Shown here: piece by piece, positions 1,448 through 57,077 of the stretch
Position numbering within the stretch: the first letter of the stretch is position 1
How the letters are laid out: every line of letters starts with the position of its first letter
Assembly (NCBI RefSeq): GCF_003334815.1
Contig: NZ_QOWO01000014.1
Reading direction: 5' to 3' (one strand)
From: Escherichia coli
GTDB taxonomy: Bacteria; Pseudomonadota; Gammaproteobacteria; Enterobacterales; Enterobacteriaceae
DNA length: 64,000 nt
The notes under the pieces: model-generated
Told to the model about the DNA's origin: nothing
The model's input: only the letters and a program-made list of their open reading frames with translations
The model's database searches: none
Translations under genes and position numbers: made by a program

Positions 1448-2800
1448 TTATTGCCCCGCAACAGGTTTCAACTCGATACGCTTGATATCGCCCACCAGCA
1501 CCAGGTAGCTCAGTACCGCGATTAAGGCATGAACACCAACATAAATCAGCGCCCCATTAAACGAGCCAGTCGTGCCAACGATATAACCAATTGCGATTGG
1601 CGTGACGATGCCAGAAATGTTACCGAACATGTTGAACAGGCCACCGGAAAGACCGCTGATCTCTTTTGGCGCGGTATCTGCCATTACTGCCCAACCCAGC
1701 GCCCCGATGCCCTTACCGAAGAAGGCCAGCGCCATAAAGCCGATGATCATCCACTCAACGTTGACGTAGTTGCAGAACACCATCACCATCGACAGCAACA
1801 TGCCCATTACGATCGGTGTTTTACGCGCAATGTTCAGCGATCCCGTGCGGCGCATCAGCCAGTCGGAAATAATCCCACCCAGCACACCGCCGATAAAACC
1901 GCAAACCGCCGGAACGGAAGCCACAAAGCCCGCTTTCAGAATCGACATCCCGCGTGCCTGCACCAGATAAACCGGGAACCAGGTAATAAAGAAGTAAGTC
2001 AGGGCGTTGATACAGTACTGACCGATATAAACGCCGATCATCATCCGTGACCCTAGCAGCTGTTTGATCTGCCCCCACTTCACGCTGAACGGCACTTTAA
2101 CTTTGGTGTTTTGCTGATCCATATTGATCAGCGCACCACCCGCGGCGATGTACTCCAGCTCTTTCTTATTTACCCCCGGATGTTGATTTGGCTCGTGGAT
2201 GACTTTCAACCAGATAAAGCTGATGACAATCCCCAGACCGCCCATAAAGAAGAAGACGTGTGACCAGCCCACTTCATGCGTCAGCCAGCCCATAATCGGC
2301 GCGAAGATCACCGTTGCGAAGTATTGAGCGGAGTTAAAAATCGACACCGCCGTTCCCCTTTCCTGCGCCGGAAACCAGGCCGCAACAATGCGACTGTTGC
2401 CGGGGAAAGATGGCGCTTCAGCAAGCCCGACCAGGAAGCGCAGCGTAAACAGGGCAACGATAATGCCGAATCCACTAAAGATATCGACGAAGCCTTGCAG
2501 CAAGGTAAACATCGACCAGATAAAGATCGACCAGAAGTAGACGCGTTTTGAACCAAAACGGTCCAGCAACCAGCCACCAGGGATCTGCCCGATAACATAA
2601 GCCCATGAGAAAGCAGAGAACACATAGCCCATTCCCACGGGATCAAGGCCGATATCTTTGGCCATTTCCGAACCGGCGATAGAGAGCGTAGCGCGGTCGC
2701 CGTAGTTGAAGGATGTGACGATAAACAACATCACCACTATCCAGTAACGAGCATTTGTGCGTTTTTCCACACTGCTCGCAGCCTGACTTAAAGAACTCAT
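1448..2800 (-). CDS. gudP: MFS transporter, D-glucarate/galactarate permease
   Basis: 450-aa ORF with 12-TM hydrophobic profile and MFS motif GDRATLS...; first gene of gudP-gudX-gudD. Confidence 0.9.
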
Positions 2801-4855: not shown

Positions 4856-5224
4856 AATAAAAAAAGGGAGCACTGTATTCACAGCGCTCCCGGTTCGTTT
4901 CGCAGCATTCCAGCTACTTTTGTTGCTCCCTGCTCATCCTTGACAACTTTTCCTCTGGCCTTGCGGCCAATCGTTCATCCTGAACTATTGCTTCCTGCTC
5001 ACACCACCCCGATGTGATACTTCATCCTGAAGTGTCCCTGGCCTTCCTGACCCACCGAATCATCCTGACCGGTTCTCATTCTCCATCCTGGAGGTGTCCT
5101 TTAACGCGTCCTGCGTCATCCTCTTCGCTTCATCCAGAAGCCTTTCCCTGAAACACCATCCTGGTGTGTCCTGCAGAAGTGTCATCATCCTGATGTTCAC
5201 TTCGTTGTCTGACTCCCTGTCGAC
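4856..5224 (-). ncRNA. csrB: CsrB small RNA (CsrA-sequestering); ends approximate to within about 5 nt
   Basis: Minus strand carries about 18 repeats of CAGGA(U/A)G / AGGA motifs (seen as catcctg / tcctg on plus strand 4930..5220) and ends in a GC hairpin plus U-run (plus 4857..4889); no credible ORF. Confidence 0.85.
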
Positions 5225-20842: not shown

Positions 20843-21943
20843 TTATCGCTCGTCGCGACGACCACCCACCGCAGCCCAGATGCGGCGGACGTGCACCGTC
20901 ACTTCTTCGCGATCGTGATACAACTGCCGCGCCTGAATCTGAGCATTTATGCCATGTTCATCAAGCTGTGCCTGAATATACGCCAGATTGTGTGACACTT
21001 CTTCGTAGCGTTTTTTCATCGGCAGTTTGAGGTTGAAAATGGTTTCACGGCACCAGCCATTAACCAGCCACTGCGCCATCAATGCCGCAACTTTCGCCGG
21101 TTTTTCAACCATATCGCATACCATCCAGGAGATATTGCTGCGCGTCGGACGGAATTTGAAACCGTCTTCCCGCAGCCACGTCACCTGTCCGGTATCCATC
21201 AGACTTTGCGCCATCGGGCCGTTGTCGACGGAATAAACCCACATGTTGCGCTTCACCAGTTGGTAGGTCCAGCCGCCAGGGCAAGCGCCTAAATCCACCG
21301 CCCACATCCCGTTCGCCAGGCGTTCATCCCACTCATCCGCAGGAATAAACACATGAAATGCCTCTTCCAGTTTGAGCGTGGAACGACTCGGCGCATCTGC
21401 CGGAAATTTCAGGCGCGGAATGCCCATATAGAACGGCGAATTATTGTTGCTGTATGAGTAACCGGTATAGCAGCAGCCTGGTGCAATAAAGAATACATGC
21501 ACAACCGGACGCTTCGGCGTTTCATAGTTCGCCAGCACCCCGGCATCGCGCAAGGCAGCGCGTAGCGGAACAGTAAATTTACGGCAGAATTTCAGTAACT
21601 CTTTGCTTTCGTTGGTATCGGCAACTTCAACACGCAGTTCACCGCCCTTCTCTACTACGCCCTGTAACATGCCGACAATGGGGGTAATACGATCTTCTGG
21701 CGGCAAATGCTGCAGGAGTTCCCCCACCACAAACCACTGGCGGGCAAAAATTAATGAACTGAACGGCAGCTCACGGATTAACTTATCGCCATCATCAGGT
21801 TGATAACATTCATAAATGACATAACCCGCATTCTCTTTCACGCGGGCAAAACCGAAAATTTCCCGCTGGCCGGCTTTATCGGTAATTTCTGCGGCGCACT
21901 CTTTTTCAAAGCCCGGACGGCACAGCAATACAACCTTATTCAT
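20843..21943 (-). CDS. rlmM: 23S rRNA 2'-O-ribose C2498 methyltransferase
   Basis: 366-aa [28 protein letters not shown]...; THUMP-like N-terminus plus methyltransferase C-terminus. Confidence 0.88.
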
Positions 21944-23395: not shown

Positions 23396-23601
23396 ACTTC
23401 CTGAGCCGGAACGAAAAGTTTTATCGGAATGCGTGTTCTGGTGAACTTTTGGCTTACGGTTGTGATGTTGTGTTGTTGTGTTTGCAATTGGTCTGCGATT
23501 CAGACCATGGTAGCAAAGCTACCTTTTTTCACTTCCTGTACATTTACCCTGTCTGTCCATAGTGATTAATGTAGCACCGCCTAATTGCGGTGCTTTTTTT
23601 T
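23396..23601 (+). ncRNA. gcvB: GcvB small RNA; ends approximate
   Basis: Starts ACTTCCTGAGCCGGAACGAAAAG, contains the G/U-rich seed tgtgatgttgtgttgttgtgtttg (23461..23484) and ends in hairpin gcaccgcctaattgcggtgc plus T8; divergent from gcvA as in the known arrangement. Confidence 0.85.
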
Positions 23602-26595: not shown

Positions 26596-26693
26596 GCCTG
26601 ATGCGCTACGCTTATCAGGCCTACATAACTCCTGCAATATTTTGGATTTGCATGATTTGTAGGCCGGATAAGGCGTTCACGCCGCATCCGGCA
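26596..26693. repeat. Pair of REP elements (BIME-like) in the tcdA-mltA gap
   Basis: gcctgatgcgctacgcttatcaggcctac (26596..26624) and gtaggccggataaggcgttcacgccgcatccggca (26659..26693), classic REP palindromes in opposite orientation. Confidence 0.7.
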
Positions 26694-27878: not shown

Positions 27879-28044
27879 TGTTCTCTTCTTCAGGTTAAAA
27901 AATAAGGCGCAACGAAGATAACAAACCGCCGCGTTTAATGAAATGAGCAGCCTCTCCCTGACGCAAATTTTGCACAAAAAATAGGCTTTAGTGATTTGTT
28001 TTTGTTCAAAATCATGCCAAATCCGTGATCGGGGTAAAAAAAGG

Positions 28045-28072
28045 TTGCATGAAAACGCGAGCGGAGTATAGT
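28045..28072 (+). promoter_or_regulatory. Sigma70-type promoter for the initiator tRNA gene
   Basis: TTGCAT (28045..28050), 16-bp spacer, TATAGT (28067..28072), then GC-rich discriminator GCGC and an upstream A-tract; tRNA begins about 14 nt downstream. Confidence 0.5.
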
Positions 28073-28085
28073 GCGCATCCACGGA

Positions 28086-28162
<77 letters not shown>

Positions 28163-28170
28163 ATTATTGA

Positions 28171-28192
28171 ACACCCTAACGGGTGTTTTTTT
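28171..28192 (+). terminator. Rho-independent terminator after tRNA-fMet
   Basis: acaccc-taac-gggtgt hairpin followed by TTTTTTT. Confidence 0.65.
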
Positions 28193-28235
28193 GTTTCTGG
28201 TCTCCCATAAAAAAGCGCCATTCAGCGCCTTTTTA

Positions 28236-31052: not shown

Positions 31053-31062
31053 GCGATGAAAA

Positions 31063-31110
31063 TCGTCGGATGCGACATGCGTAACACTCGTACGTCGCAT
31101 CCGGCAATTA
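31063..31110. repeat. REP-like palindrome between convergent argA and recD
   Basis: gtcggatgcgacatgcg...cgtacgtcgcatccggc inverted repeat. Confidence 0.5.
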
Positions 31111-31113
31111 CGT

Positions 31114-32940
31114 TTATTCCCGTGAACTAAACAACGCCGCCAGACCACTGCGCCGCTCAGTACGAGTGGCGATTGCCGCACTTAATATGCGCTCATCGGC
31201 ATACAGCGACAGACGGCGACGCGCGCGGGTCACCGCGGTATAAACCAGCTCTCGCGTTACTACCGGCGTGCGTTGGCTCGGCAAAATCAACGCCGCATGG
31301 TCGAACTCCGATCCCTGCGATTTATGTACCGTCATCGCCCACGTAGTTTCGTGCTCTGGCAAGCGACTCGGTTGCACAGACTTAATATTGCCGTCCGGCA
31401 TCGCAAACCAGACGCGCGTCCCCTGCCCGCGATCCAGCGCAATACCGATATCGCCATTAAACAACCCAAGCGCGCTGTCATTACGGGCAATCATCACCGG
31501 TCGACCTTCGTACCAACGAGAGTGCGGATGACGATGAATTTTGCGCTTCTGTTGCATAAACTGCTCAATTCGCTCATTCAGTCCAGCCACGCCAAACGGC
31601 CCTTCCCGCAGGGCGCACAAAAGCTGGTACTCATTGAACGCCTGAATGATTAAATCCGGCTCGGCACGCGCTTGCAGCAGATCCAGATAACGTCCGTAAC
31701 CCGCAAGAGCTTCCTCAAGCATCGCAATATAATCTTCGCCGCTCTGTAAAAGCCGTTTTTCGATATCAGTAAAATCCTGCTGAAAAACGGTTTTCACTGC
31801 CGTTTTATCACCACGGTTGATCGCCGCAGCTAACTGACCAATGCCAGAATCGCTGCCGAAACGATAGCTTTTTTGCAGCAGGCAGAGACTGTCGCGCAAA
31901 GATGCCGCTTCTGTGCCGGTTCCTGCCGGAACGTGAGTCCCCGTCAGGCGGCTTAGCTGCCTGGCACGCTCGGCGGTAAAGCCCGCGTTGGCATAAGCGC
32001 AGATATCGCCCAGCACAGCCCCAGCCTCAACCGAGGCCAGTTGATCACGATCGCCGAGAAAGATCACTCGCGCATGATCGGGCAAGGCGTCGATCAGTCT
32101 CGACATCATAGGCAGATCGATCATTGACGCTTCATCTACCACCAGCACATCAAGATGCAGCGGGTTACCGGCATGATGACGTAAACGCTGGCTACCCGGC
32201 TGCGCGCCCAGCAATCGGTGCAAAGTGCTGGCATCTTCCGGAATGCGTTTCTTTTGTTCATCGGTCAGCGGTAACTGTCGCAAAGCCTTGCCGAGAGATT
32301 CGGTTAAGCGCGCGGCAGCTTTACCCGTTGGTGCAGCCAGACGGATACGGCAGCGTTCGCCGTCGGCCATTTGAATTAACGCTGCCAGCAACTTCGCTAC
32401 GGTGGTCGTTTTACCGGTGCCAGGGCCGCCGGAAATCACCGAGATCCGCCGCGTCAGCGCCACTGCCGCCGCAACTTTTTGCCAGTTAATTTCATCGCTT
32501 ACTGGAAAAAGTTTGTCCAGGGTTTGCGCCAGTAGAGCTTCATCAACCTCAATGGCATGATTCACTTCGTTGAAAAAGCGTGCCACTGTGCGCTCGTTAC
32601 ACCACATGCGATTCAAATAAAGACGATCGCCACAGAGGATCATCGGCGTGGGTTCATCTCCCCTGCTGACCGCTTGAGAAGCCAGCAAGCATTCTTCCCA
32701 ATTTTGTAGCTCACCGATTTCACTGACACAGGTCGCCAACAGCGGATGCGACGCCTCGTTATTTTCCAGTCGTGAAAGCGGCAAACAAACGTGTCCCTCT
32801 CCGGCATCATGACTTAACAGTGCCGCCGCGAGGGTGACGGCAGGATGTTCATCTCCCGCCACGGTCAGGGCAAATTGCACATCCAGCGGGCGTAGCTGTT
32901 TGTGCTCCACAGCTTCCAGTAATTGCTTTTGCAATTTCAT
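31114..32940 (-). CDS. recD: RecBCD enzyme subunit RecD (5'-3' helicase)
   Basis: 608-aa ORF; Walker [10 protein letters not shown]; start overlaps recB stop. Confidence 0.93.
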
Positions 32941-35900
32941 TACGCCTCCTCCAGGGTCATACCGGCAAACATCTCATCCATCAGGGCAATCAACCCGGCG
33001 TTGGGTCGGGTTGTGTAAATCCCCTGTTGCGGATGTTCTTTATCAACGCCACGCAGGAACAGATAAATAACGCCGCCAAAGTGGTGCTCATAGTCGTAAT
33101 CAGCAATGCGATGGCGCAGATAACGATGCAGCGCCAGGGTATAAAGCTGATATTGCAGATCATAGCGGTGTGCCTGCATTGCCGCTGCCATAGCCTGTTG
33201 GGTGTAAGCCGAACTGTCTTCACCCAACCAGTTGGATTTATAGTCGAGCAGGTAATAACGCCCTTCGTGGCGGAACACCAGGTCGATAAAGCCTTTTAAC
33301 ATGCCACGTACCTGCATGAACTCCAGCGGCGGGCAGCCTGCGGATAGCGGGTCAAACTGGCGGATTAACGTATCAAGCTGACTGGCGATAAGCGGTTCAC
33401 TAATCGGCAGATAAAACTCCATCTCCACCTGTTTATTGCGGGCGGAAAGTTGACTCAGGCTTACGCCGGTTTCATTGAGAGGTGCCTGGAGGACAGCCGT
33501 GATCCACTCGGTCAATACCGGTTCCCACTGCGATTCAAAGCCGCCGAGTTCCAGTTTTTCCCGCACCCAGTTCGGGTCAACCGGCTGGGTAAAATCCAGG
33601 TCTTCAAACAAACTGTGCAAGAACGTCCCCGGTGACGCACCGCGCGGAAACTGATGTGGTGTTAACGTCGGTTCTTCAACGACGCTGGCAACGCCTGCAG
33701 CATCGACATCCAGCCGAGGCATCAAATCCTGGGCGATACCGTGACCACGCTGTTGCAAACCAGAGTAGCTGGTGACGCGCCAGTTATCGCCGGGCAATCG
33801 TTGTAACGTCTTCGCATTCAGCTCTGCTGTAGAAACATCATTAACCTGCCAGGGTTGGTTATCACCAGTTTGTGCCGTTTGCCAGGCAATATCATCATCG
33901 CATAACGCTTCAATACAGGTGCGAAGCCCTGCCGCATCTTGCGGTTCCCCTTTTTGCAGCAAACGCCCGAGCGCACTTTGGTGGACGTCGGTGTCACCTT
34001 TTTTATCGCCACGACGGCGCACCAGCGGTGCAACGCCGAGACTGCAATGCCAAACCGAACGTGTCAGCGCCACGTAAAGCAAACGCAGATCTTCCGCCAG
34101 ACGTTCGGCCTCCGCGAGGTCGACGCTTTCTGGCGCAGCATTAAGATCCAGAACTGCCTCAAACGAGTGGCGATCGTGATAAAACGCCTGCTCCTGGACG
34201 CGGAAATTGGTGATAAACGGCAGCCAGACCAATGGATATTCCAGCCCTTTCGATTTGTGGATCGTGACAATCTGCACCAGATGTTTATCACTTTCGAGAC
34301 GCATTTGTTGGCTGGAGGCATTACTGTCTGGCTCGAGGATATGTTGCGATAACCAGCGTACCAGCGCATGTTCACTTTCCAGCTGCGTTCCGGCTTCTTG
34401 TAGCAGTTCGCTGATATGCAAGATATCGGTAAGACGCCGCTCACCGCCTGCCGTTGCCAGCAAGTTTTCAGCAATGTTACGCGCCGACATCAGCGCCCGC
34501 AGCATCGGCATAACGCCACGTTTGCGCCAGATTTGCCGATAACCATCGAACTCTTCGACTACCACATCCCACGCATGTTCGTCATTGTTCAGCGTTTCGA
34601 TATCCAGCGCGTTCAGCCCCATCATTGACGTTGCCAGCGCACTACGCAGGGTGTTCTCACGTTCGGGCGTCATCACCGCCTGCAACAACCAAAGCATTTC
34701 CTGCGCTTCCAGAGTTTCAAAAACACTGTCGCGGTTCGAAAGGTAAACGGAAGGGATTTCCAGCAACGTTAAGGCATCGCGCACCTGGGCGGCCTCCTGG
34801 CGGCTGCGCACCAGCACACTGATGTCCGAAGCACGCACCGGACGCGCGTCGTCGCCGTTCATCAGCAACGCTTCGCCCCGCTGTCCGGCTTGTAGCCAGT
34901 CGCGGATTTGCGCAGCACATACCTGCGCCATGGTACTTTGATAATCGCCAACGCCGCAGCTTTCGCCTTCCATCAGCCACATTTTCATCGCAGGCTGTGT
35001 TTCACCTTTAAATACAAAACGTAACGCCTGATTTTTCCCGGCTGATTTCACTGGAATAAACGGTATTTCGCGAAACATGAACGCGTCATCAGTCTGGCTG
35101 AAAAGCTTATTCACGCTGTTCACCATTCCTGGTGCGGAACGCCAGTTGGTGTCTAAAGTGTAGTGGGCGTGAACTTCGCTACGCGCCTTCATATAAGTGA
35201 AGATATCCGCACCCCGGAATGCATATATGGCCTGCTTCGGGTCGCCAATTAGCAACAATGCGGTTTCCGGCTGATGGTGCCAGATACGGCGAAAAATTCG
35301 GTACTGCTGGGGGTCGGTATCCTGAAATTCATCGATCATTGCCACCGGGAATCGCGTACGGATCGCCGCTGCCAACACCTCACCGCTTTCGCTACGCAGC
35401 GCGGAATCGAGCCGACTTAACATGTCATCAAAACCCAATTCGCCACGGCGGCGTTTTTCACGCGCTACTGTTTCGCGGATCTCAGCCAATGCGCGGGTGA
35501 TCACCAGATCGCGGATCGACAATGGTTCTGCAAGCAGTTGATCGATCGCCTCAAACAGTGGATGTCGCGGGGTTCCCCCCCCGGCCTTCGTGCGATCTTC
35601 TAAGAAACGCTGGGAGAATTTTTCCAGCGACTCCGGCAACTGATAACTGTTTGTCTCTTCTTCTGCCCAGGCGCTGATCTTGTCGATCCATTTAGCCTGA
35701 TTGCTACGGTTAAACTTGCGTCGATCAATACCAGAAGATTCGATCAGCGCATCCAGTTCACCCACTGCGTCGCGCCACTGCTGTTTTACCGTATCAATAC
35801 GCGCCACAATTTGCGCGTGACGGGAAGCCAGCGTTTCATCATCGGGCGGCGGTGCTTTGATAACCGGCGCTTCGCCTTGCAGATAACGATTAATATCGCG

Positions 35901-36482
35901 CAGCAACGCCTGCGGCCCTTTCCAGGTTTCAAAGACGACCTGGGCTATTTCACGCGGCAGCGGGTAGCAGTGGCGACGCCAGAAATCGGCGCAGGCCTGG
36001 TAGCGTAGCAGAGACTCATCTTCAATCAGCTGCTGCTCAAACAGCATGCCGGATTCAAAGGCATTCAGGTTGAGCATGCGCTGGCAAAAGCCGTGAATAG
36101 TAAAGACTGCCGCTTCATCCATCTGCCGTTCGGCTAACAACAACCACTGCGCGGCTTGCGCTTTATCGTCGATCTCTTCCAGCAGGCGTTCGTACAGTGG
36201 ATTGTCGGTGGTTTCACGCAGACAGGCGATGCGCAACTCGTGGATATTGCTACGGATACGACCGCGCAATTCTGCCGTGGCAGCCTCGGTAAAGGTGACC
36301 ACCAGCAGTTCTTCAACGGTCAGCGGGCGGGGAAAGGCGGCGGAACCGCCTAGTCCAAGTAACAGGCGCAAATAGAGCGCCGCAATCGTAAAGGTTTTGC
36401 CTGTGCCGGCAGAGGCTTCAATCAGGCGCTCACCCTGTAAGGGCAAGCGCAAAGGATCTAGTGTCTCGGCGACATCACTCAT
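32940..36482 (-). CDS. recB: RecBCD enzyme subunit RecB (3'-5' helicase / nuclease)
   Basis: [37 protein letters not shown] (UvrD-like Walker A); start ATG 36482 overlaps ptrA stop by 8 nt. Confidence 0.93.
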
Positions 36483-39363
36483 TCTTTTCACTCATCAGGG
36501 GCATTGTTTGCTGCAACGCGCTGACGTTCTCCCACACTTTCCAGCCTTCAGGGTGTACATATTCGGCTTTCCCGTTCTGGCTGCCGGAAATCTGCGACAG
36601 AATAGCCATGCCTTGCGGCTCGACCACCGCCTGATGGAAGAAATCAGCAAGTTTTTGCGGCGTCAGCAGTTTTATCTGGGCCACGATTTTATCACGCGAA
36701 TCGAAGCGCATATTGCCGCGATCGAAATCTTTACTTAACTTCGATGCTTCTTCGCCGAGCGTTTGCGGTGCCTGCAGCATCTGGGTAATTACCGCCTGCT
36801 GGATTTGCGCAAACTCATCTGGCTTCATCGCTCGCAATTTTGCCTCTGCGGTTGGGAAAAACGCCTTGTAACGCTCCCACAAGAATGAAGGCTGTTTATC
36901 ATTGCTTTGCAAAAGGAAGCCCATGCCCCACTGACGCCCCACGCTCATTGGAAACGCAAACACGGCATAGCCCAATTGTTCTTCGGTACGCAACTGATTG
37001 TAGAACCACGGCTGTACGATCTGCCCCAACAGAGAGCTATAGGCTGAGCTGGTGTATTCATCGTAGCCAGTCGGTACAAATACCGCTGCCAGTGCGGAGT
37101 CGGTGCTGTTACCGGCTTTTTCAAAGATGACGGATTGTTTTTTATCGACCACTACATCTTTGTTTCGACACCACTCTGAACCATCAGCGCCCAACTGTTT
37201 TTGCACATCGCGTGCCAGCGTTGTTGCCTGGGCCTCGGTCATGTTGCCGATAACCATAAACTCTGGTCGAGCCCCTGATTTTAAGGCGTCGCGATAGGCC
37301 AGCACCTCTTTCAACGTAATGGAGGGCAAAATTTTACGCCGTTCATCTCGCGAGAAGTACGGCACTTGCGAGAGCATCTGCGCGGGCATAATCGCCTGCT
37401 CAAACGCTTTACCCTTTTCTGCGGAATCCATCATCTGGTTATACCAGGACTTCGCCTGCTCAAGCTGATCTTCCGTAGCGGTATAGCTAAAGTACCCCTC
37501 GAGCAATGCCTGGAACAGCTGCGGCAGACGCTGGGTGTAACCATTAGCATTAACCATAAGGCCGTTGTTAGCGTTGGTGGAAAAACTTATGCCACCAACC
37601 GACGCCTGGTTGCTTAACTGATCAAGCGCCAGCCCTGCGAGATAATCATTGAGCGCAAACATCACCTGATTGCGGGCGCTGTCCATGGCTTTCGGATTAC
37701 GCAAAATCAGGCTGACATCAGCTTTGGGCTCGCTGGCAAAATAACGGCTTGGCGCATACACCACGCGCAGATTCGACTCATCAACAATCAGCTCTGGATG
37801 GTCGTATTTCTTCTCTGACTTAATCAGCGAGAAATCATCAGGAATATAAGGGTTAAGCTCTGGCAAAGAGAGCGCAATGTCGGCGGCTTTTTTCTGCCAG
37901 TCGGCGAAAGTTTGTGCGCTGATTTTATCGACCTGATACGGCGCATCGACAAAGTAAGCCGTTTTGTTGTGCGGCTCTTTCGGGCTGATATACCAGATAC
38001 GCGCATTCTGCGGCGTCATCATCGCCAGACGTTCCTTTACTGCTTTAGCATCGTACCGATCGGCAATATTGACTGCATCCAGCGTATGCTCAACAGGAAC
38101 GCGAATCATGGTATCTGCCAGCCATTCGACGTAATCCATATCACGGGTGATCGACGGATAACGGAAGTCGATATCCAGCACATTCGCCAGTTCATCGAAG
38201 TATTGTTTATCAATGCCTTTTTCACGTAACAGATTGAGATAGCTAAAAATTGCCGCCACAACCTGATCGCGATTAGCCAGGCCTTTATCGGTTAAAGACG
38301 CAGAGATCGCTAATACGCCGCTGTTGCCGTTGACGATAGGATCGGAGTTGGCGCTAATGCCCTCAACTAATCCCTGCTTTTGCAGCCAGTCAGAAAGTGT
38401 ACCTGGGCTGCGATTGCCAATCAGATAGGTAATCAATTCATCGGTTTTACTACGGAACTTCGCTGAGTTGTTATCGATGCGAAACTCAACGCGCAACACT
38501 TTACGCGGCAGCGCAGGGACGTAATGAATGATAATGCCCTTTTGCGCGTCGGTGACTACCGGCACGGTGATTTCCGGTTTTTTGCTCTCTTTGTTCGGCA
38601 CGCGACCAAAGGTGTCCGCCGCCATTTTTGCCAACTCCGGCAGCGGTTTATTACTGTAAATAACCGCCTTCATCAAATTGGCGGAATAGTACTTCTCGTG
38701 GAAATCTTTCAGCGCCTGCTGCACCGGATTACCAGGTTTGTCGCTTAAAGTTTCGAGGTTACCACCAGAAAACTTTGAACCGGGGTGTGCCGGGTTAATG
38801 GTTTCTGCGCTGACCTGTGCCATGCGCATCCCGTCACGCGTACGCGCCATGGTTAATTCAGCGTTCACCGCATTACGCTCACGTTCGGCATATTTCTTGT
38901 CGAGCAAAGGTTCAGCAATAGCATCGGCCAGGCGGTCTACCGCACCAGGCAAGGCGTCGTTCTCAACTTCCAGATAGAAAGCCGTGCGATACGGCGCAGT
39001 GCTGGCATTGTGACTACCGCCGTGCATTTTGAGATATTCGGCCAGACTGTCAGCCTGCGGGTACTTTTTCGACCCCATCAGACTCATATGTTCAAGGTAA
39101 TGTGCCAGCCCCTGGTACGCCTCGGGATCTTCCAGCGACCCAACGGGCACCACCAGCGCCGAGAGCGATTTAACTGCCTGCGGATCAGAAACCAGCAAGA
39201 CCACCATACCGTTATCCAGACGTATAGCCTGATACTGGCGGTTATCTTTATCACTTTTACGGATGGTTTCCTGAATCGGCTGCCATCCCGTTTCTGCCTG
39301 ACTTAAGGGTGCCCAAAGGGCAACTAACAACAATAATGCTTTGAACCAGGTGCTGCGGGGCAT
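36475..39363 (-). CDS. ptrA: Protease III / pitrilysin (M16 metalloprotease, periplasmic)
   Basis: 962-aa ORF with signal peptide MPRSTWFKALLLLVALWAPLSQA and inverted zinc motif HYLEH. Confidence 0.93.
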   Translation of the reverse strand: MPRSTWFKALLLLVALWAPLSQAETGWQPIQETIRKSDKDNRQYQAIRLDNGMVVLLVSDPQAVKSLSALVVPVGSLEDPEAYQGLAHYLEHMSLMGSKKYPQADSLAEYLKMHGGSHNASTAPYRTAFYLEVENDALPGAVDRLADAIAEPLLDKKYAERERNAVNAELTMARTRDGMRMAQVSAETINPAHPGSKFSGGNLETLSDKPGNPVQQALKDFHEKYYSANLMKAVIYSNKPLPELAKMAADTFGRVPNKESKKPEITVPVVTDAQKGIIIHYVPALPRKVLRVEFRIDNNSAKFRSKTDELITYLIGNRSPGTLSDWLQKQGLVEGISANSDPIVNGNSGVLAISASLTDKGLANRDQVVAAIFSYLNLLREKGIDKQYFDELANVLDIDFRYPSITRDMDYVEWLADTMIRVPVEHTLDAVNIADRYDAKAVKERLAMMTPQNARIWYISPKEPHNKTAYFVDAPYQVDKISAQTFADWQKKAADIALSLPELNPYIPDDFSLIKSEKKYDHPELIVDESNLRVVYAPSRYFASEPKADVSLILRNPKAMDSARNQVMFALNDYLAGLALDQLSNQASVGGISFSTNANNGLMVNANGYTQRLPQLFQALLEGYFSYTATEDQLEQAKSWYNQMMDSAEKGKAFEQAIMPAQMLSQVPYFSRDERRKILPSITLKEVLAYRDALKSGARPEFMVIGNMTEAQATTLARDVQKQLGADGSEWCRNKDVVVDKKQSVIFEKAGNSTDSALAAVFVPTGYDEYTSSAYSSLLGQIVQPWFYNQLRTEEQLGYAVFAFPMSVGRQWGMGFLLQSNDKQPSFLWERYKAFFPTAEAKLRAMKPDEFAQIQQAVITQMLQAPQTLGEEASKLSKDFDRGNMRFDSRDKIVAQIKLLTPQKLADFFHQAVVEPQGMAILSQISGSQNGKAEYVHPEGWKVWENVSALQQTMPLMSEKNE

Positions 39364-39538
39364 TCACGGACCTCATAATCAACTTAATTTTCTGTCCAGA
39401 TTCAACACGTTAACGCAAATCATCTGCCAGAATTTAATCTTGTGCTGCACGAGTCAGCCTATGTTTATATAACCATCAGTCCGTGACTGGTGCGCATCAT
39501 AAAGTAAGCGGATAGATTGCGCAATTTTTATACAGCAC

Positions 39539-42500
39539 TCATGACTGATTAAAGCGAAACAGCGGTAACAGGAAACGTTGCGACTGTTCAACGATGGCCT
39601 CCATTGTCTCTGGTGTTAATTGCCGCCAGAGCCTTTGATACCAGATATCATCACCTTCGCCACGCACCATCATGTTGCCTTCGTAAGCCTGAAGGAATTT
39701 CGTACGGGCTTTTTGCAACGTGGAATCGTCATCCAGCATGGCATCGTTTTGCGCGTCATAACAGGTTTTTAGCCACGCGCCGCCACTTTCAGGTAACACC
39801 AGCAATGGCGCGGACATTCCTTCACGATACCCCTCAATCAGTTGTGAGAGGTAATGCAAAGCCTGTTCGGCTGCAAGCGGCGGAAAACGCCACTCGCCGT
39901 CTTTGCGTAGAAAAAGGCGACTTTCACCATTACCACCGCTGGCACAGTAGACAAGGTGTTCCAGCCAAAGTTGCATTCCCTGGGCCACACTTAATAAAGA
40001 GGGACGCCAGCGCAACAGGCCATCCGGCTGCACCTGCGGCAACCAGCCAGTTATCTGCACACCGTTGCAGGCGAGATCAATTTCCATACTCTGCCCCGGC
40101 TGGCGACAGGCAATGACTCTGTCGGCAAGCTGCTGCATCTCCTGGCACTGTGTTTCCCAGAAAATTTCACCAAAAGCGCCATACGGTAAATCCCCTGCCG
40201 CTCGGAAGCGGCGGAACAAGCGTTCGGCATCATCCTGCTCAACCAGTGCATTCAATAACTGCTGATTGATTTGATAACGGCTAAGTCCTTCCAGAATAAA
40301 TGGCTCGGTGTCGGGGATTTCGCTGTCTTCAGTACGGAAGTTCACCTGCAAACGCATCTGGAAAAATGCCCGCACCGGATGTGCCCAGAATCGTTGTAGC
40401 GTTTCCAGCGGCACGGTTTCCGGTAAGGTAAACGGCAGCGGCTGAACAAATTCAGAATGTGCTTTACCAGCCTGGCTGGCCGCAGGTAGCCATTCACGAG
40501 CATAGCTTTGTCGTTCGCCTGGCTGGTAGTTTTGTGGATCAAACGGCATCCGGGTATGGAGGCAAGTAAGATGCGCTTTTACCCTTGCCTCGCTTTCATC
40601 ACAGTTGAGCGCTTCATCGCCCGGTAGATAATGACTTTGCCCGATGTAGTCGATCAGTTCCTGCACCAGTACCGACGGGAAACGCTCACTGTTATCCTGA
40701 ATGGAACGACCGATATAGCTGATATAGAGTTTTTGCTGCGCGGAAATTAACGCTTCCAGGAACAGATAGCGGTCGTCATCGCGACGGCTACGGTCGCCAC
40801 GCTTCGGTTTCTGGCTCATCAGGTCAAAGCCCAATGGCGCAAGCTGACGTGGATAAACGCCGTCGTTCATTCCCAGCAGGCAAACCACTTTGAACGGAAT
40901 TGAACGCATTGGCATCAGAGTACAAATGTTAACCGGTCCGGCGAGAAAACGCTGGCTGATACGTTCTTGATCCAGACGCTGTGCCAGTTCATCACGCAAT
41001 AGTGACAGCGGCACCGCGTCGCCATACTGCGCACCTAAACCTTCGGCGATAATCGCCTGCCATTGTTGTTCGATCAGCGTCATCGCCGCTTCGGTTTCCG
41101 CATCCGGCAGGAAGAAGGCGTTGAGCATATCGCGACAAACCGGCAACCACTCTTCCAGCGGACGCTCCTGTGCCAGCCCGCGACGCCAGATGTTTAGCTG
41201 CATTAGCAGTGAAGCCAGATGCCCCACCAGTTCTGCAATTAAGCCGCTCGATTCATCATAAGGTAGAACCGATTGCCACTCGCCCTGCGCGCTCTCCATC
41301 GCGTAGCCCAACAACATACGCGTCAGGCCAAATCGCCAGGTGTGTTGTCCGGTGGCGGGGAGTTCCAGCTCGCGAACGTTGTCGTCATCTATGCCCCAAC
41401 GAATGCCGGATTCGTTGACCCACTGGCGTAAATAACGCAGCCCTTCTTCGGTGATGTCAAACCGCGCCGCCAGCACCGGCACATCCAGCAACGCCAGCAC
41501 ATCCTCTGACACAAAACGACTGTCAGGCAGTGATAACAGGCTGATAAACGCTTCCAGTACCGGATGTGACTGCCGCGCACGACGGTCGGAAATGGCGTAA
41601 GGTAGGTAACGATCCGCAGGTGCGCTACCAAACACAGCCTGAATAAACGGACTGTAGCTGTCGATATCAGCCACCATCACGATGATGTCGCGCGGAGTAA
41701 GTGTCGGGTCTTCCTCCAGCATCGCCAGCAGGCGATCGTGTAAAACTTCAACTTCACGCTGCGGGCTATGGCAAACGTGGAAGGTGATACTGCTATCCAG
41801 TGGATCAAGCGGGCGTTTGTTATCGCTACGGGAAAACTCTTCGATGTTCACACCAGCAACGGCGCGGTTTTCCAGTTCCAGAATGTCAGACTGAATGTTA
41901 TGCAGCAGGTTATCTGGCGTGACATCGACAAAGGCGTCCAGCTCCTGGCTGCTCTCCAGGTCAGAAAGGAGATAAATGTAGTCGCGCCCAAGCTTACCCC
42001 ATGAAGCCAGCAGCGGGTTGCCGACATCCTGTTCACCATCGCTGTTAAAGAGCTGCCCGGCATTTTCGCTATCACGAAATAGCGGCAATTCGCGATCTTC
42101 AAAACTGTGTCGACGCTGACGGGTCAGCAGTTTCGCCAGATAAGCAGGATCTTTAATATCGCCCCAGTAATAACGGCAGGGGTTGGTAAACAGGAGATGG
42201 ATTTCAATATGTTTACCCAGCGCCTGTAGCGCCTGGAGATAAACAGGCGGTAACGCGGAAATACCGCATATAAAGACGCGCGAAGGTAACCCCGGCGGGC
42301 AGGTCGTCGCGGACTCCAGCGTTTCGATAAAGCGCTGATAGAGATTGGCGCGGTGCCAGCGCGGTTGCCCGAGTTGATGGGTATATTCCACCAGCGCCTT
42401 CCACAACGGGGCTTGCCAGGCCTGTGCTTCTCCCAGCCCTTCAACCAAATGTCCTGTTTCCCACTGTGCCAGCCAGTCCGGACGATAGACCAGATACTGG

Positions 42501-42907
42501 TCAAACAGGTCCGCCGCTTTTGAGGAAAGCTGGAACAGTTTTCGCTTGTCGCTATCGTCAGTCAGATAATGCCGCAACAGGGTAAAGTCTTCGCGCTCCA
42601 GCAATTGCGGCAGCAGAGTCATCAGTTTCCAGCTCATGCTCTGTTTGTTAAAGGCGCTCTCTTTGGGGATTTCCGGTAACACCCGGACGAACATATCCCA
42701 GATAAAGCTCGCTGGCAGCGGAAAATCAATGTTTGCCGCAATACCAAACTTTTGCGACAGGGTCATTTGCAGCCACTGTGCCATACCGGTACTTTGCACC
42801 AGAATCATCTCTGGTTCGAAAGGATCGTCCAGCCGTTCGCGTTCGACAATAAACTCCATCAACGCTTCCAGCACGTCCAGACGATTGGAATGGTAGACCC
42901 TTAACAT
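39539..42907 (-). CDS. recC: RecBCD enzyme subunit RecC
   Basis: 1122-aa ORF MLRVYHSNRLDVLEALMEFIVERERLDDPFEPEMILVQSTGMAQWLQ... Confidence 0.93.
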   Translation of the reverse strand: MLRVYHSNRLDVLEALMEFIVERERLDDPFEPEMILVQSTGMAQWLQMTLSQKFGIAANIDFPLPASFIWDMFVRVLPEIPKESAFNKQSMSWKLMTLLPQLLEREDFTLLRHYLTDDSDKRKLFQLSSKAADLFDQYLVYRPDWLAQWETGHLVEGLGEAQAWQAPLWKALVEYTHQLGQPRWHRANLYQRFIETLESATTCPPGLPSRVFICGISALPPVYLQALQALGKHIEIHLLFTNPCRYYWGDIKDPAYLAKLLTRQRRHSFEDRELPLFRDSENAGQLFNSDGEQDVGNPLLASWGKLGRDYIYLLSDLESSQELDAFVDVTPDNLLHNIQSDILELENRAVAGVNIEEFSRSDNKRPLDPLDSSITFHVCHSPQREVEVLHDRLLAMLEEDPTLTPRDIIVMVADIDSYSPFIQAVFGSAPADRYLPYAISDRRARQSHPVLEAFISLLSLPDSRFVSEDVLALLDVPVLAARFDITEEGLRYLRQWVNESGIRWGIDDDNVRELELPATGQHTWRFGLTRMLLGYAMESAQGEWQSVLPYDESSGLIAELVGHLASLLMQLNIWRRGLAQERPLEEWLPVCRDMLNAFFLPDAETEAAMTLIEQQWQAIIAEGLGAQYGDAVPLSLLRDELAQRLDQERISQRFLAGPVNICTLMPMRSIPFKVVCLLGMNDGVYPRQLAPLGFDLMSQKPKRGDRSRRDDDRYLFLEALISAQQKLYISYIGRSIQDNSERFPSVLVQELIDYIGQSHYLPGDEALNCDESEARVKAHLTCLHTRMPFDPQNYQPGERQSYAREWLPAASQAGKAHSEFVQPLPFTLPETVPLETLQRFWAHPVRAFFQMRLQVNFRTEDSEIPDTEPFILEGLSRYQINQQLLNALVEQDDAERLFRRFRAAGDLPYGAFGEIFWETQCQEMQQLADRVIACRQPGQSMEIDLACNGVQITGWLPQVQPDGLLRWRPSLLSVAQGMQLWLEHLVYCASGGNGESRLFLRKDGEWRFPPLAAEQALHYLSQLIEGYREGMSAPLLVLPESGGAWLKTCYDAQNDAMLDDDSTLQKARTKFLQAYEGNMMVRGEGDDIWYQRLWRQLTPETMEAIVEQSQRFLLPLFRFNQS

Positions 42908-42919
42908 AGCGGCTCCTGA

Positions 42920-43243
42920 CTACTGACGATTCGGGCAATGCAGGCGGGTCATCTCGCCTTCTCTGCCCCCGGGTGAAACTAGCGTAACGCTGATGCTGAC
43001 ACATCCCGCCTGCGATGTCTGCATTCGGTTGACCTGCCAGTTGGCAGGTGGCGAAATCGCGCGCAGTTGCGTTTGCTGCCAGCCATGCCGCCAGAGCTGT
43101 TGGTACTGGTTTCTGCTGGCAAGACTGTTCATTAATGTTCGCTGGAAACCCGATAACGCAGTGACAATCATCACCATCAACACCATCGCCAACATTACCT
43201 CCGGCAGGCTAAAGCCTTGTTGATTCTTCAGGGAAGCTGACAT
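42920..43243 (-). CDS. ppdC: Prepilin peptidase-dependent protein C (pseudopilin-like)
   Basis: [26 protein letters not shown], class III prepilin-type N-terminus; ATG 43243 with GAGAGG SD. Confidence 0.83.
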
Positions 43244-43635
43244 AACGCCCTCTCTTTCAGCGGACAAAAATCGCTCCAGCCGCGTGGCGAAAAAACAATG
43301 TTTCCATCAATGACTTCGCCTGTTCGCCACAACGAAACGCCTTCATAACCGGCAATCAATAAGGCTTCATTATCTGCCAGTAAACGCAAACAAACCTGGG
43401 CATCGGTTTCAGCGTACTGCGAGCACTGAACTGCTGGCTGCGTCTGCCAGGAGTGCATTTTTCCCCACGCCAGCGCCGACTGAACGATGGCCTGGCGGCG
43501 CAATGACTGACTTTCCATGCTCACGCGAGAGGCAAAACTGCGATCCTGTTGGCTCATTCCTTGTAATAGCAAACTACCCAAAACCAGCAGCATCAGGACC
43601 AGAGCCAGTGACGAAACACCCTTTTCGCGGTTCAC
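43228..43635 (-). CDS. ygdB: DUF2509 protein in the pseudopilin cluster
   Basis: 135-aa [29 protein letters not shown]; overlaps ppdC and ppdB. Confidence 0.82.
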
Positions 43636-44195
43636 AGGTTGAATCCTGTCACGCTATAGCTGGCATTCACCACGGTTTGCGGTTCAGACTTACTGGCAGC
43701 ACGCATATTAACCGTCAACACCGGCGAGAAGCCGCTGACATCCTGACGTACGACCTGAAAAGTGTCGATAATGATGGCATCCGGATTAGTGACTTTATCC
43801 CAGCCCTTACCTTCACAGGATGTCGCACCGCGTAGCGTTTCCAGCACATGCTCCTTCAGACGAAATCCAATCTGGTCGGACTCTTTTACCGGTTCGCGAT
43901 CCCAGATACCGTTACTGTTCGCATCCCACTGCACAATGACACAGTCACCCTGTCCGACAATTTCCAGCCCTTCGCCGGTACAGATGCCATGACAATAACC
44001 CGCCCTCTGGAGATGCTTCGCGACGGTAAATACCCGCAGCCAGATTTCATCTTCCAGCGCCAGCTTACGGGTGCTCGTTAAACTTTCACGCTGTAACGCA
44101 GGCAGAAAGCGTGCCGCCCCCAGCAACAATACGCTACTGATCGCCATAGCAATCAACACTTCCAGCAGAGAAAAACCTTGCTCTTTTACAGGCAT
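43632..44195 (-). CDS. ppdB: Prepilin peptidase-dependent protein B (pseudopilin-like)
   Basis: [30 protein letters not shown]; start ATG 44195; the ORF track 267-aa version is an 80-codon upstream extension overlapping ppdA. Confidence 0.83.
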
Positions 44196-44656
44196 CCTTC
44201 TGTTTCTCCTTGCTGACAAAGCCGGAGTCTTCCCCACGGCGAAACCACCAGCCACCACTCGCCCGTTGAGTTTTTGAAGCGAATATGCCCGGCCCATGCG
44301 GTATTGCGCAGGCCAAAGAAAGCAAGCGAAGGTGTCAGGTCGCTCATTTCGACTTCGGGCCAGCGTGGCACAAAGACCAATGGTGAACTGCCATGACAGG
44401 TATTGGCCCCAGCAGCGGAACTCACAAGGCACCATAACGTCCCCTCCCTGATAACGCTGATACTGTGGTCGCGGTTATGCCAGTTGGCATCTTCACGTAA
44501 ATAGAGCAAATAGTCCCGCGCCTGGCTGGCGGTTTGCCATAGCCGTTGCGACTGCTGCCAGTATTGCCAGCCATAGAGTCCACTTGCGCTTAGCATGACC
44601 AAAATCAGCATCGCGACCAGCGTTTCAATCAGCGTATAACCACGTTGTGTTTTCAT
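44186..44656 (-). CDS. ppdA: Prepilin peptidase-dependent protein A (pseudopilin-like)
   Basis: 156-aa [33 protein letters not shown], prepilin-type N-terminus. Confidence 0.87.
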
Positions 44657-53147: not shown

Positions 53148-56514
<3,367 letters not shown>

Positions 56515-56580: not shown

Positions 56581-56668
56581 AAAAAAAACCTGCGCATCCG
56601 CGCAGGTTGGTGCAAGAGACAGGGTACGAAGAGCGTACCGAATAATCTCACCAATCAATACCTCTGGG
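56581..56668 (-). ncRNA. omrA: OmrA small RNA (88 nt)
   Basis: Minus strand reads CCCAGAGGTATTGATTGGTGAGATTATTCGGTACGCTCTTCGTACCCTGTCTCTTGCACCAACCTGCGCGGATGCGCAGGTTTTTTTT. Confidence 0.87.
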
Positions 56669-56782: not shown

Positions 56783-56864
56783 AAAAAAAACCTGCGCATC
56801 TGCGCAGGCTGGTGTAATTCATGTGCTCAACCCGAAGTTGACTTCACCTATCAATACCTCTGGG
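56783..56864 (-). ncRNA. omrB: OmrB small RNA (82 nt)
   Basis: Minus strand reads CCCAGAGGTATTGATAGGTGAAGTCAACTTCGGGTTGAGCACATGAATTACACCAGCCTGCGCAGATGCGCAGGTTTTTTTT; shares 5' and 3' ends with omrA. Confidence 0.87.
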
Positions 56865-57077
56865 ATCACCACTTTAGCAACCTGAAGCCAAACGCCACCA
56901 GCGGTCAATCGCAACAGCGTTTCGCAAAGTGTAACCAAAGGTTTGCAATCTCTTTTTTTGTCTTACTTATTTGCGTTTGGCTCACATTCCCACGATGAAA
57001 ACACGCCACCCCTTGAACCAACGGGCGTTTTCCGTAACACTGAAAGAATGTAAGCGTTTACCCACTAAGGTATTTTC

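Follow-up and report, generated by a model that had tools for sequence, protein, structure and literature searches.

The interval at positions 31114-42907 of the window (the whole 64-kb stretch of DNA that was analysed) is the standard, long-known chromosomal RecBCD (exonuclease V) locus of E. coli, in the middle of which lies the protease gene ptrA. We consider it probable that, in this standard locus, recB is translated by termination-reinitiation from ptrA, that RecD synthesis is matched to that of RecB, and that the Chi octamers are ordinary. Earlier papers already describe the locus, its operon structure and both gene overlaps, and have raised the idea that ptrA and recB are coupled. What the present analysis adds is small: the conservation over 80 Enterobacteriaceae species of the ptrA/recB overlap and of a weak recB and a strong recD ribosome-binding site, together with a natural exception that has a 413-nt spacer and one relative with the same neighbourhood and no ptrA. 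These additions could aid the design of a direct test of how RecB is kept below ten molecules per cell.

Table 1. Features of the locus and Chi octamers of the window, in window coordinates
Feature	Position	Strand	Description and basis
recD, exodeoxyribonuclease V alpha subunit	31114..32940	-	608 aa; RefSeq annotation of 100%-identical genome
Strong Shine-Dalgarno for recD	32945..32952	-	GGAGGAGG, within last recB codons; sequence read
recB stop / recD start	32938..32942	-	TAATG, 1-nt overlap at 32940; read directly
recB, exodeoxyribonuclease V beta subunit	32940..36482	-	1180 aa, ATG start
ptrA stop / recB start	36475..36482	-	ATGAGTGA, 8-nt overlap; read directly
Weak recB ribosome-binding region	36483..36502	-	gcccctgatgagtgaaaaga, inside ptrA coding sequence; anti-SD energy
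ptrA, pitrilysin (protease III)	36475..39363	-	962 aa
recC-ptrA spacer	39364..39538	-	175 nt; promoter and 5' UTR of ptrA-recB-recD operon; operon structure from PMC12342828
Published Hfq-binding site, ptrA 5' UTR	39378..39413	-	identical to the 36 nt removed in PMC12342828
recC, exodeoxyribonuclease V gamma subunit	39539..42907	-	1122 aa
Chi in gudP	1492..1499	-	VLVG
Chi in recD	32139..32146	-	starts in codon 265; VLVV
Chi in recB	36299..36306	-	starts in codon 59; LLVV, just before TFT
Chi in ptrA	39150..39157	-	starts in codon 69; ALVV
Chi in recC	42388..42395	-	starts in codon 171; ALVE
Chi in ppdA	44245..44252	-	WLVV
Chi in lplT	53672..53679	-	SLVG
Chi in lplT	54014..54021	-	TLVG
Chi, non-coding	56895..56902	-	sole non-coding copy; 31 to 38 nt upstream of OmrA-B family sRNA gene

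Gene content and operon structure

Gene limits were taken from the RefSeq annotation of a 100%-identical genome mapped onto the window, with genes placed by BLAST. Several complete E. coli genomes, among them FORC 064 and ML35, match the interval with 100% identity, and the locus was found in 5,426 of 5,426 complete E. coli genomes. NCBIfam equivalog models covered the whole of RecD (NF008127, 1139.9 bits against a cutoff of 671), RecB (NF008128, 2335.9 against 1697) and RecC (NF008289, 2129.2 against 1470), and the pitrilysin equivalog NF011681 of the M16 family matched residues 1-959 of PtrA (1855.5 bits, cutoff 765). PtrA is a periplasmic protein, and its N-terminus, MPRSTWFKALLLLVALWAPLSQA followed by E, is signal-peptide-like by look alone. 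A sequence-only reading of the same DNA had named recD, recB, ptrA and recC in this order; the annotation mapping and the NCBIfam models agreed with it, and recomputation of the coordinates of every feature it had claimed revealed no miscount. In a mechanical list of open reading frames recB begins further upstream, at a GTG at 36491; the annotated ATG yields the known RecB N-terminus. The Chi-regulated helicase-nuclease activity of this RecBCD is predicted from 100% identity to annotated E. coli genes.

Gene order and sizes, the 1-nt and 8-nt overlaps, the recC-ptrA spacer with its published Hfq site, and the flanking genes ppdC and argA, one at each end, are all shared with the known E. coli recC-ptrA-recB-recD locus; within the interval there is no difference of substance, and the window is another strain. 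The window carries a single tRNA-Met at a place where the reference carries three, which changes the coordinate offset between the two for genes left of amiC.

The genes ptrA, recB and recD have been described as one operon (PMC12342828), and in Serratia the genes lie on one transcript (PMC10545897). recC would be expressed separately, and ptrA, recB and recD would form one polycistronic operon with its promoter in the recC-ptrA spacer, which in related species measures 18 to 186 nt (median 152). RecB protein per mRNA doubled when the Hfq site before ptrA, which lies about 2.9 kb upstream of recB, was deleted (PMC12342828); Hfq would throttle the translation of ptrA at that gene's ribosome-binding site. 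A consensus scan found no promoter-like site near the ptrA 3' end and no convincing terminator at the junctions, which is weak evidence; with fewer promoter-like sites in the real sequence than in shuffled versions, and none close to the junctions, the scan was uninformative.

The ptrA/recB and recB/recD overlaps

Read directly, the minus strand at the ptrA/recB junction is GAAAAGAATGAGTGATGTC, with the recB ATG at 36482..36480 and the ptrA TGA at 36477..36475, and that at the recB/recD junction is GAGGAGGCGTAATGAAA, with the recB TAA at 32942..32940 and the recD ATG at 32940..32938. Both overlaps had been claimed from the sequence alone, the former as 8 nt and the latter as a recD start overlapping the recB stop at 32940, and the direct read showed them in place, with one nucleotide shared in the latter. 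The recB/recD overlap had been published previously (PMC2586629). When the 50 genes of the window were ranked by anti-Shine-Dalgarno duplex energy, recD came first (-12.1 kcal/mol) and recB 47th (-2.5 kcal/mol). The ribosome-binding site of recB has previously been located inside ptrA, with coupling suggested (PMC12342828).

Within E. coli, the 71-nt ptrA/recB junction was present at an identity of at least 95% in all 5,426 complete genomes. Beyond E. coli, comparison was made across 80 Enterobacteriaceae species. The order recC-ptrA-recB-recD was found in 77 of the 77 loci with enough flanking sequence. ptrA and recB overlapped in 79 of the 80 species (by 4 nt in 45, 8 nt in 31 and 20 nt in 3), and the overlap was retained despite divergence of the junction into 47 distinct sequences. 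The Shine-Dalgarno match of recB was weak in all 80 species (median -3.0 kcal/mol), that of recD was strong throughout (median -9.9 kcal/mol, 78 species), and recB and recD overlapped in 79 of 79 species, through ATGA or GTGA (4 nt) in 71 and TAATG (1 nt) in 8. The exception at the ptrA/recB junction was Intestinirhabdus alba (L018), in which a 413-nt spacer replaces the overlap and recB has a better Shine-Dalgarno than usual (-5.8). In addition, one relative with the same gene neighbourhood (L083) carries recC-recB-recD without ptrA. These two loci indicate that the ptrA/recB overlap is dispensable. More distant relatives of RecB were mostly from reduced-genome symbionts, in which recB-recD is kept and the surroundings are rearranged, and have little bearing on the overlap; in one symbiont locus (L084), faint traces of ptrA persist upstream of recB. 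The view of ptrA as an insertion rests on work on the evolution of RecBCD gene order (Cromie 2009), as cited in PMC12342828, and on the L083 locus.

It can reasonably be inferred that translation of recB is coupled to that of ptrA, as already proposed in print (PMC12342828). Ribosomes ending ptrA at its UGA would sit a few nucleotides beyond the recB AUG, and a small fraction of them would restart there by termination-reinitiation. Because recB is almost without a Shine-Dalgarno of its own, its output is proposed to be low and tied to ptrA translation. The start of recD, at a UAAUG junction behind the very strong GGAGGAGG, would match RecD synthesis to that of RecB, as is usual when two proteins belong to the same complex. 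The commonest gene overlaps in E. coli are -4, -1 and -8 nt, and such pairs, when tested, were coupled by termination-reinitiation (PMC10666635). The recB/recD (-1, TAATG) and ptrA/recB (-8) junctions both fall within these three classes, and coupling is predicted at each. Overlapping pairs are enriched among the subunits of complexes (PMC10666635), a category to which RecB and RecD belong; the stoichiometry argument does not apply at ptrA/recB, because PtrA acts as a protease in the periplasm and is no partner of RecB. An overlap by itself is no proof of coupling. The kept overlap, the weak recB Shine-Dalgarno and, as indirect evidence, the published Hfq-site deletion are consistent with ptrA-recB coupling, to which the 80-species comparison lends modest support.

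Other accounts of the junctions were weighed against coupling. The overlaps could be neutral, having arisen because the genome is compact and ptrA was inserted, with recB initiating de novo, inefficiently and independently of ptrA translation, possibly also on transcripts that start inside ptrA. Overlaps are indeed frequent, 9 of the 35 same-strand neighbour pairs in the window overlapping, three of them by 8 nt, and the aas/lplT junction bears the identical octamer ATGAGTGA; the loss of the overlap in I. alba and the absence of ptrA in L083 also fit such an account. The recB AUG and the preceding 10 nt, moreover, were predicted to be unpaired in minimum-energy and centroid structures alike and would be reachable for free ribosomes. 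Neutrality does not, however, sit well with an overlap kept in all but one species although the junction sequence diverges, with the very weak recB Shine-Dalgarno match in every species, or with the altered translational efficiency of RecB upon deletion of a site before ptrA (PMC12342828). The coupling found in tested E. coli pairs with such overlaps (PMC10666635) and, weakly, the scan result at the ptrA 3' end also speak against it, and we regard the neutral account as unlikely. A hairpin covering the recB start, melted by ribosomes that translate the end of ptrA, would be a classic coupling mechanism. The 141-nt ptrA/recB junction folded slightly better than its shuffles (z = -1.59), but 9 of 200 shuffles folded as well, which is not significant, and the unpaired recB start argues against masking. 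The fold of the recB/recD junction was likewise unremarkable (z = -0.20). With both folds unremarkable the hairpin idea was dropped, and we give it very little credence. Termination-reinitiation remains the preferred reading of the ptrA/recB junction.

Chi octamers in the window

An exhaustive scan of the 64-kb window for the exact Chi octamer 5'-GCTGGTGG-3' found nine copies, four of them in the interval. The sequence-only reading had listed copies at 36299..36306 (recB), 42388..42395 (recC) and 53672..53679 (lplT), and each is present; its list was incomplete, as it had itself said, and within the interval it held two of the four, those in recD (32139) and ptrA (39150) having been missed. 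The orientation bias that it had suggested checking is complete, with nine of nine copies on the minus strand. In eight of these the octamer is on the coding strand and is read as G-CTG-GTG-G (Leu-Val), and over the 80 species 269 of 274 coding-strand copies were in the CTG-GTG frame. The GC skew of the plus strand was negative in 14 of 16 bins, which makes the minus strand G-rich and, on that ground, probably the leading strand. On the leading strand Chi has the orientation active for the repair of broken replication forks, and its strand and codon bias is textbook material. Coding Chi would arise as the codon string xxG-CTG-GTG-Gxx in genes transcribed in the direction of replication, which would place it on the leading strand.

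In the window, Chi exceeded the expectation from dinucleotide shuffles (1.92 expected; 0 of 100 shuffles reached 9). It was also one of 12 octamers with a strand difference of at least 9, and thus not unique in this respect. The E. coli genome averages 217 Chi per Mb (bioRxiv 10.1101/2021.07.08.451572), which predicts 13.9 copies in 64 kb, where nine were observed, and 2.6 in the 11.8-kb interval, where four were observed (Poisson P(>=4) = 0.26). The frequency and orientation of Chi have been attributed to codon usage plus gene orientation (10.1101/2021.07.08.451572). The copies here follow from the choice of Leu-Val codons and from gene orientation, occur at the ordinary genomic density and are of no particular significance to the rec genes.

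We also weighed whether Chi in recB, recC and recD is kept by locus-specific selection, for example selection favouring repair of the genes for the enzyme that reads Chi. Shuffling synonymous codons in the four genes gave an expectation of 0.63 copies against the four observed (P = 0.003), so independent codon usage is not the full explanation; 4 of their 9 Leu-Val-[VADEG] sites are Chi. Chi made up a fraction of 0.36 of such sites in the four genes and 0.12 in flanking ORFs, and Chi recurred at the same codons of the locus in 26 to 47 of the 80 species, the upper figure belonging to the copy that starts in recB codon 59. The test was, however, post hoc, and the species are not independent samples. 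Chi per kb equals the genome average, ptrA is equally dense in Chi although it is unrelated to recombination, and the ratio of observed to expected copies in flanking control ORFs was similar to that in the four genes (2.69 vs 3.17; 80 species). The sites, moreover, encode conserved Leu-Val-Val motifs in preferred codons, and CTG-GTG is among the most abundant codon pairs (10.1101/2021.07.08.451572). We therefore think locus-specific selection on Chi exceedingly improbable. Scarcely more probable is a combined proposal that the Leu-Val-codon Chi of the rec genes and ptrA is selected beyond codon usage and that, separately, the conserved ptrA/recB overlap sets RecB dosage via ptrA translation. 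If it were true, the locus for the enzyme that reads Chi would be exceptionally rich in the very site that this enzyme recognises, and RecB dosage would be controlled through the translation of an envelope-protease gene. The discovery value is small, since the overlaps and Chi are both typical of the genome and already described.

Under the preferred reading, that Chi is ordinary here, the copies in the window do not differ from known E. coli Chi hotspots: the octamer is exact, mostly on the coding strand in the CTG-GTG frame and probably on the leading strand, and a copy occurs about once every 5 to 7 kb; recombination activity of these copies is predicted from sequence.

Gene limits and junctions of the rec locus

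Long minus-strand open reading frames occupy 31114..32940, 32940..36491, 36475..39363 and 39539..42907 of the window. By megablast, the interval was matched in all 5,426 complete E. coli genomes, three of which lacked a match covering at least 80% of it, and several genomes, FORC 064 and ML35 among them, were 100% identical over it and annotated there as recD, recB, ptrA and recC. Gene coordinates were obtained by transferring the RefSeq annotation of FORC 064 to the window by BLAST. The translations of RecD, RecB, PtrA and RecC have both ends as expected of E. coli proteins, and each scores above the curated NCBIfam equivalog cutoff along its whole length. One of 5,429 matches to the locus in the E. 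coli collection fell on a record labelled plasmid.

Direct reading of the minus strand showed that the final A of the recB stop TAA (32942..32940) is also the first base of the recD ATG (32940..32938), and that the recB ATG (36482..36480) precedes the ptrA stop TGA (36477..36475) in an 8-nt overlap, ATGAGTGA. Thus, the gene coordinates and both overlaps reported in the sequence-only reading are correct. The locus itself is already known, and the 1-nt recB/recD overlap has been published (PMC2586629). Among same-strand neighbours in the window, 9 of 35 pairs overlap, including three with an 8-nt overlap. The octamer ATGAGTGA recurs in the aas/lplT overlap (54334..54341), and rlmM/ygdD overlap by ATGAATAA (21936..21943). 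The three commonest gene spacings across E. coli are -4, -1 and -8 nt, those pairs of this kind that have been tested turned out to be coupled through termination-reinitiation, and genes for subunits of the same complex are enriched in overlaps (PMC10666635).

Upstream of recC, the pseudopilin-like genes ppdA-ppdB-ygdB-ppdC (42908..44656, minus strand) overlap successively by 10, 4 and 16 nt; since this chain stops 12 nt ahead of the recC ATG, recC too lies directly behind functionally unrelated genes. At the other end, the 61-nt spacer between convergent recD and argA (31053..31113) contains an inverted repeat, GCCGGATGCGAC...GTCGCATCCGAC, which looks like a REP-like element or a two-way terminator. 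Between mltA and amiC (region 27879..28235), the window has one tRNA-Met gene (28086..28162, plus strand), whereas the otherwise near-identical FORC 064 stretch has three tandem copies (L001 15753..16049) and is 221 nt longer, reflecting either copy-number variation or assembly collapse of the metZWV repeat.

Features of the rec locus, Chi octamers and small RNA genes in the window
Feature	Position	Strand	Source
recD	31114..32940	-	FORC 064 annotation mapped by BLAST
recB	32940..36482	-	FORC 064 annotation mapped by BLAST
ptrA	36475..39363	-	FORC 064 annotation mapped by BLAST
recC	39539..42907	-	FORC 064 annotation mapped by BLAST
Chi	1492	-	exact octamer
Chi	32139	-	exact octamer
Chi	36299	-	exact octamer
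Chi	39150	-	exact octamer
Chi	42388	-	exact octamer
Chi	44245	-	exact octamer
Chi	53672	-	exact octamer
Chi	54014	-	exact octamer
Chi	56895	-	exact octamer
CsrB	4856..5215		Rfam
GcvB	23396..23601		Rfam
ES036 (CssrF)	26617..26659		Rfam
OmrA-B	56581..56668		Rfam
OmrA-B	56783..56864	-	Rfam

Conservation of the ptrA/recB overlap and translation of recB

Scanning species-representative genomes with RecB gave 80 Enterobacteriaceae loci (RecB identity 68-98%), and the order recC-ptrA-recB-recD was found in all 77 with enough flanking sequence. After start-codon refinement, 45 species had a 4-nt ptrA/recB overlap (ATGA), 31 an 8-nt overlap and three a 20-nt overlap; recB and recD overlapped by 4 nt in 71 and 1 nt in eight. 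The ptrA/recB junction occurs in 47 distinct versions, so the overlap has been kept through sequence change; within E. coli, the 71-nt junction is present at at least 95% identity in every complete genome. In Serratia, ptrA heads an operon containing recB and recD (PMC10545897). In E. coli, recC is expressed apart from the polycistronic ptrA-recB-recD operon, and ptrA probably interrupted an older order recC-recB-recD (PMC12342828).

Anti-Shine-Dalgarno pairing upstream of recB is weak (-2.5 kcal/mol, rank 47 of 50 window genes), whereas that of recD, with the strong Shine-Dalgarno GGAGGAGG at 32945..32952, ranks first (-12.1 kcal/mol); this contrast is seen in all 80 species, where the medians were -3.0 and -9.9 kcal/mol, respectively. 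The predicted fold of the ptrA/recB junction (z = -1.59) gave no sign of hairpin unmasking at the recB start, because the start region is unpaired, and that of the recB/recD junction was unremarkable (z = -0.20). The published Hfq site was located at 39378..39413 in the ptrA 5' UTR, about 2.9 kb upstream of recB; its deletion doubled RecB proteins per mRNA (PMC12342828). While the anatomy and conservation of the locus are observed, we infer from the weak recB site in all species, the unpaired start and the effect of the Hfq-site deletion that ribosomes finishing ptrA may reinitiate at the recB AUG with low efficiency, which would hold RecB at low levels that scale with ptrA translation. For recD, GGAGGAGG and the UAAUG junction are consistent with tight coupling to recB, by which RecB and RecD synthesis could be matched.

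Alternatively, the ptrA/recB overlap may have no obligatory role. The sole exception among the 80 species, Intestinirhabdus alba (L018), has a GC-rich 413-nt non-coding spacer (L018 9588..10000) without a long ORF, and a better recB Shine-Dalgarno match (-5.8 kcal/mol). Likewise, a relative with RecB, RecC and RecD about 58-60% identical (L083; GCA_018257615.1, 1581..10434) lacks ptrA: in the neighbourhood ppdB-DUF2509-recC...recD-argA-amiC, as in E. coli, recC is followed directly by recB after a 45-nt gap, and the gene calls give an 8-nt recB/recD overlap. Older reports also place promoters closer to recB and recD. Dependence of recB translation on that of ptrA, as implied by the sequence-only reading, is a reasonable interpretation, and one already in print (PMC12342828). 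Several reduced genomes retain recB-recD alone, and one (L084) has faint ptrA remnants upstream of recB.

Chi sites in and around the rec genes

An exhaustive scan for GCTGGTGG found nine copies, all on the minus strand. The three noted from the sequence alone were recovered, but that list was incomplete even within the rec interval, missing the copies in recD (32139) and ptrA (39150). Dinucleotide shuffles of the window gave 1.9 expected; this is not the appropriate comparison for E. coli, whose genome contains 1,008 Chi at a density of 217 per Mb (10.1101/2021.07.08.451572). The genome-average rate predicts 13.9 copies for the 64-kb window; for the rec interval it predicts 2.6, against four observed (Poisson P(>=4) = 0.26). 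Plus-strand GC skew was negative in 14 of 16 4-kb bins; therefore the minus strand is G-rich and presumably the leading strand. Each of the nine Chi is oriented in the way that predominates in E. coli (PMC8022716). Eight are in minus-strand genes, on the coding strand and all in the frame xxG|CTG|GTG|Gxx (Leu-Val), and Chi frequency and orientation have been ascribed to the CTG|GTG codon pair and to gene co-orientation with replication (10.1101/2021.07.08.451572). In the window, 11 other octamers likewise show a strand difference of 9 or more.

Synonymous-codon shuffling within genes gave 0.63 Chi expected in the four-gene locus against four observed (P = 0.003), and 3.06 against four in the other 46 window genes; four of the nine Leu-Val-[VADEG] sites in recD, recB, ptrA and recC are Chi. 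Enrichment specific to the rec genes was rejected, since across the 80 species flanking long ORFs showed an observed/expected ratio similar to that of the four genes (2.69 vs 3.17); Chi therefore generally exceeds what independent codon choice would give. Chi recurred at the same codon in recB (codon 59, 47 of 80), recC (codon 171, 26 of 80), ptrA (codon 69, 26 of 80) and recD (around codon 265, most), counted over species that are non-independent samples. These recurring codons are conserved Leu-Val-Val motifs in preferred codons. The recB Chi lies within LLVV immediately before TFT, which we take to be helicase motif Ia, and ptrA, unrelated to recombination, behaves like the rec genes. We conclude that Chi in this locus is the ordinary, expected background of the E. 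coli genome.

The window also contains small RNA genes above Rfam gathering thresholds (CsrB, GcvB, ES036 and two OmrA-B copies). The one intergenic Chi (56895..56902, minus strand) covers nucleotides 31 to 38 upstream of the start of the minus-strand OmrA-B family gene at 56783..56864, and thus about at its presumed -35 promoter element.
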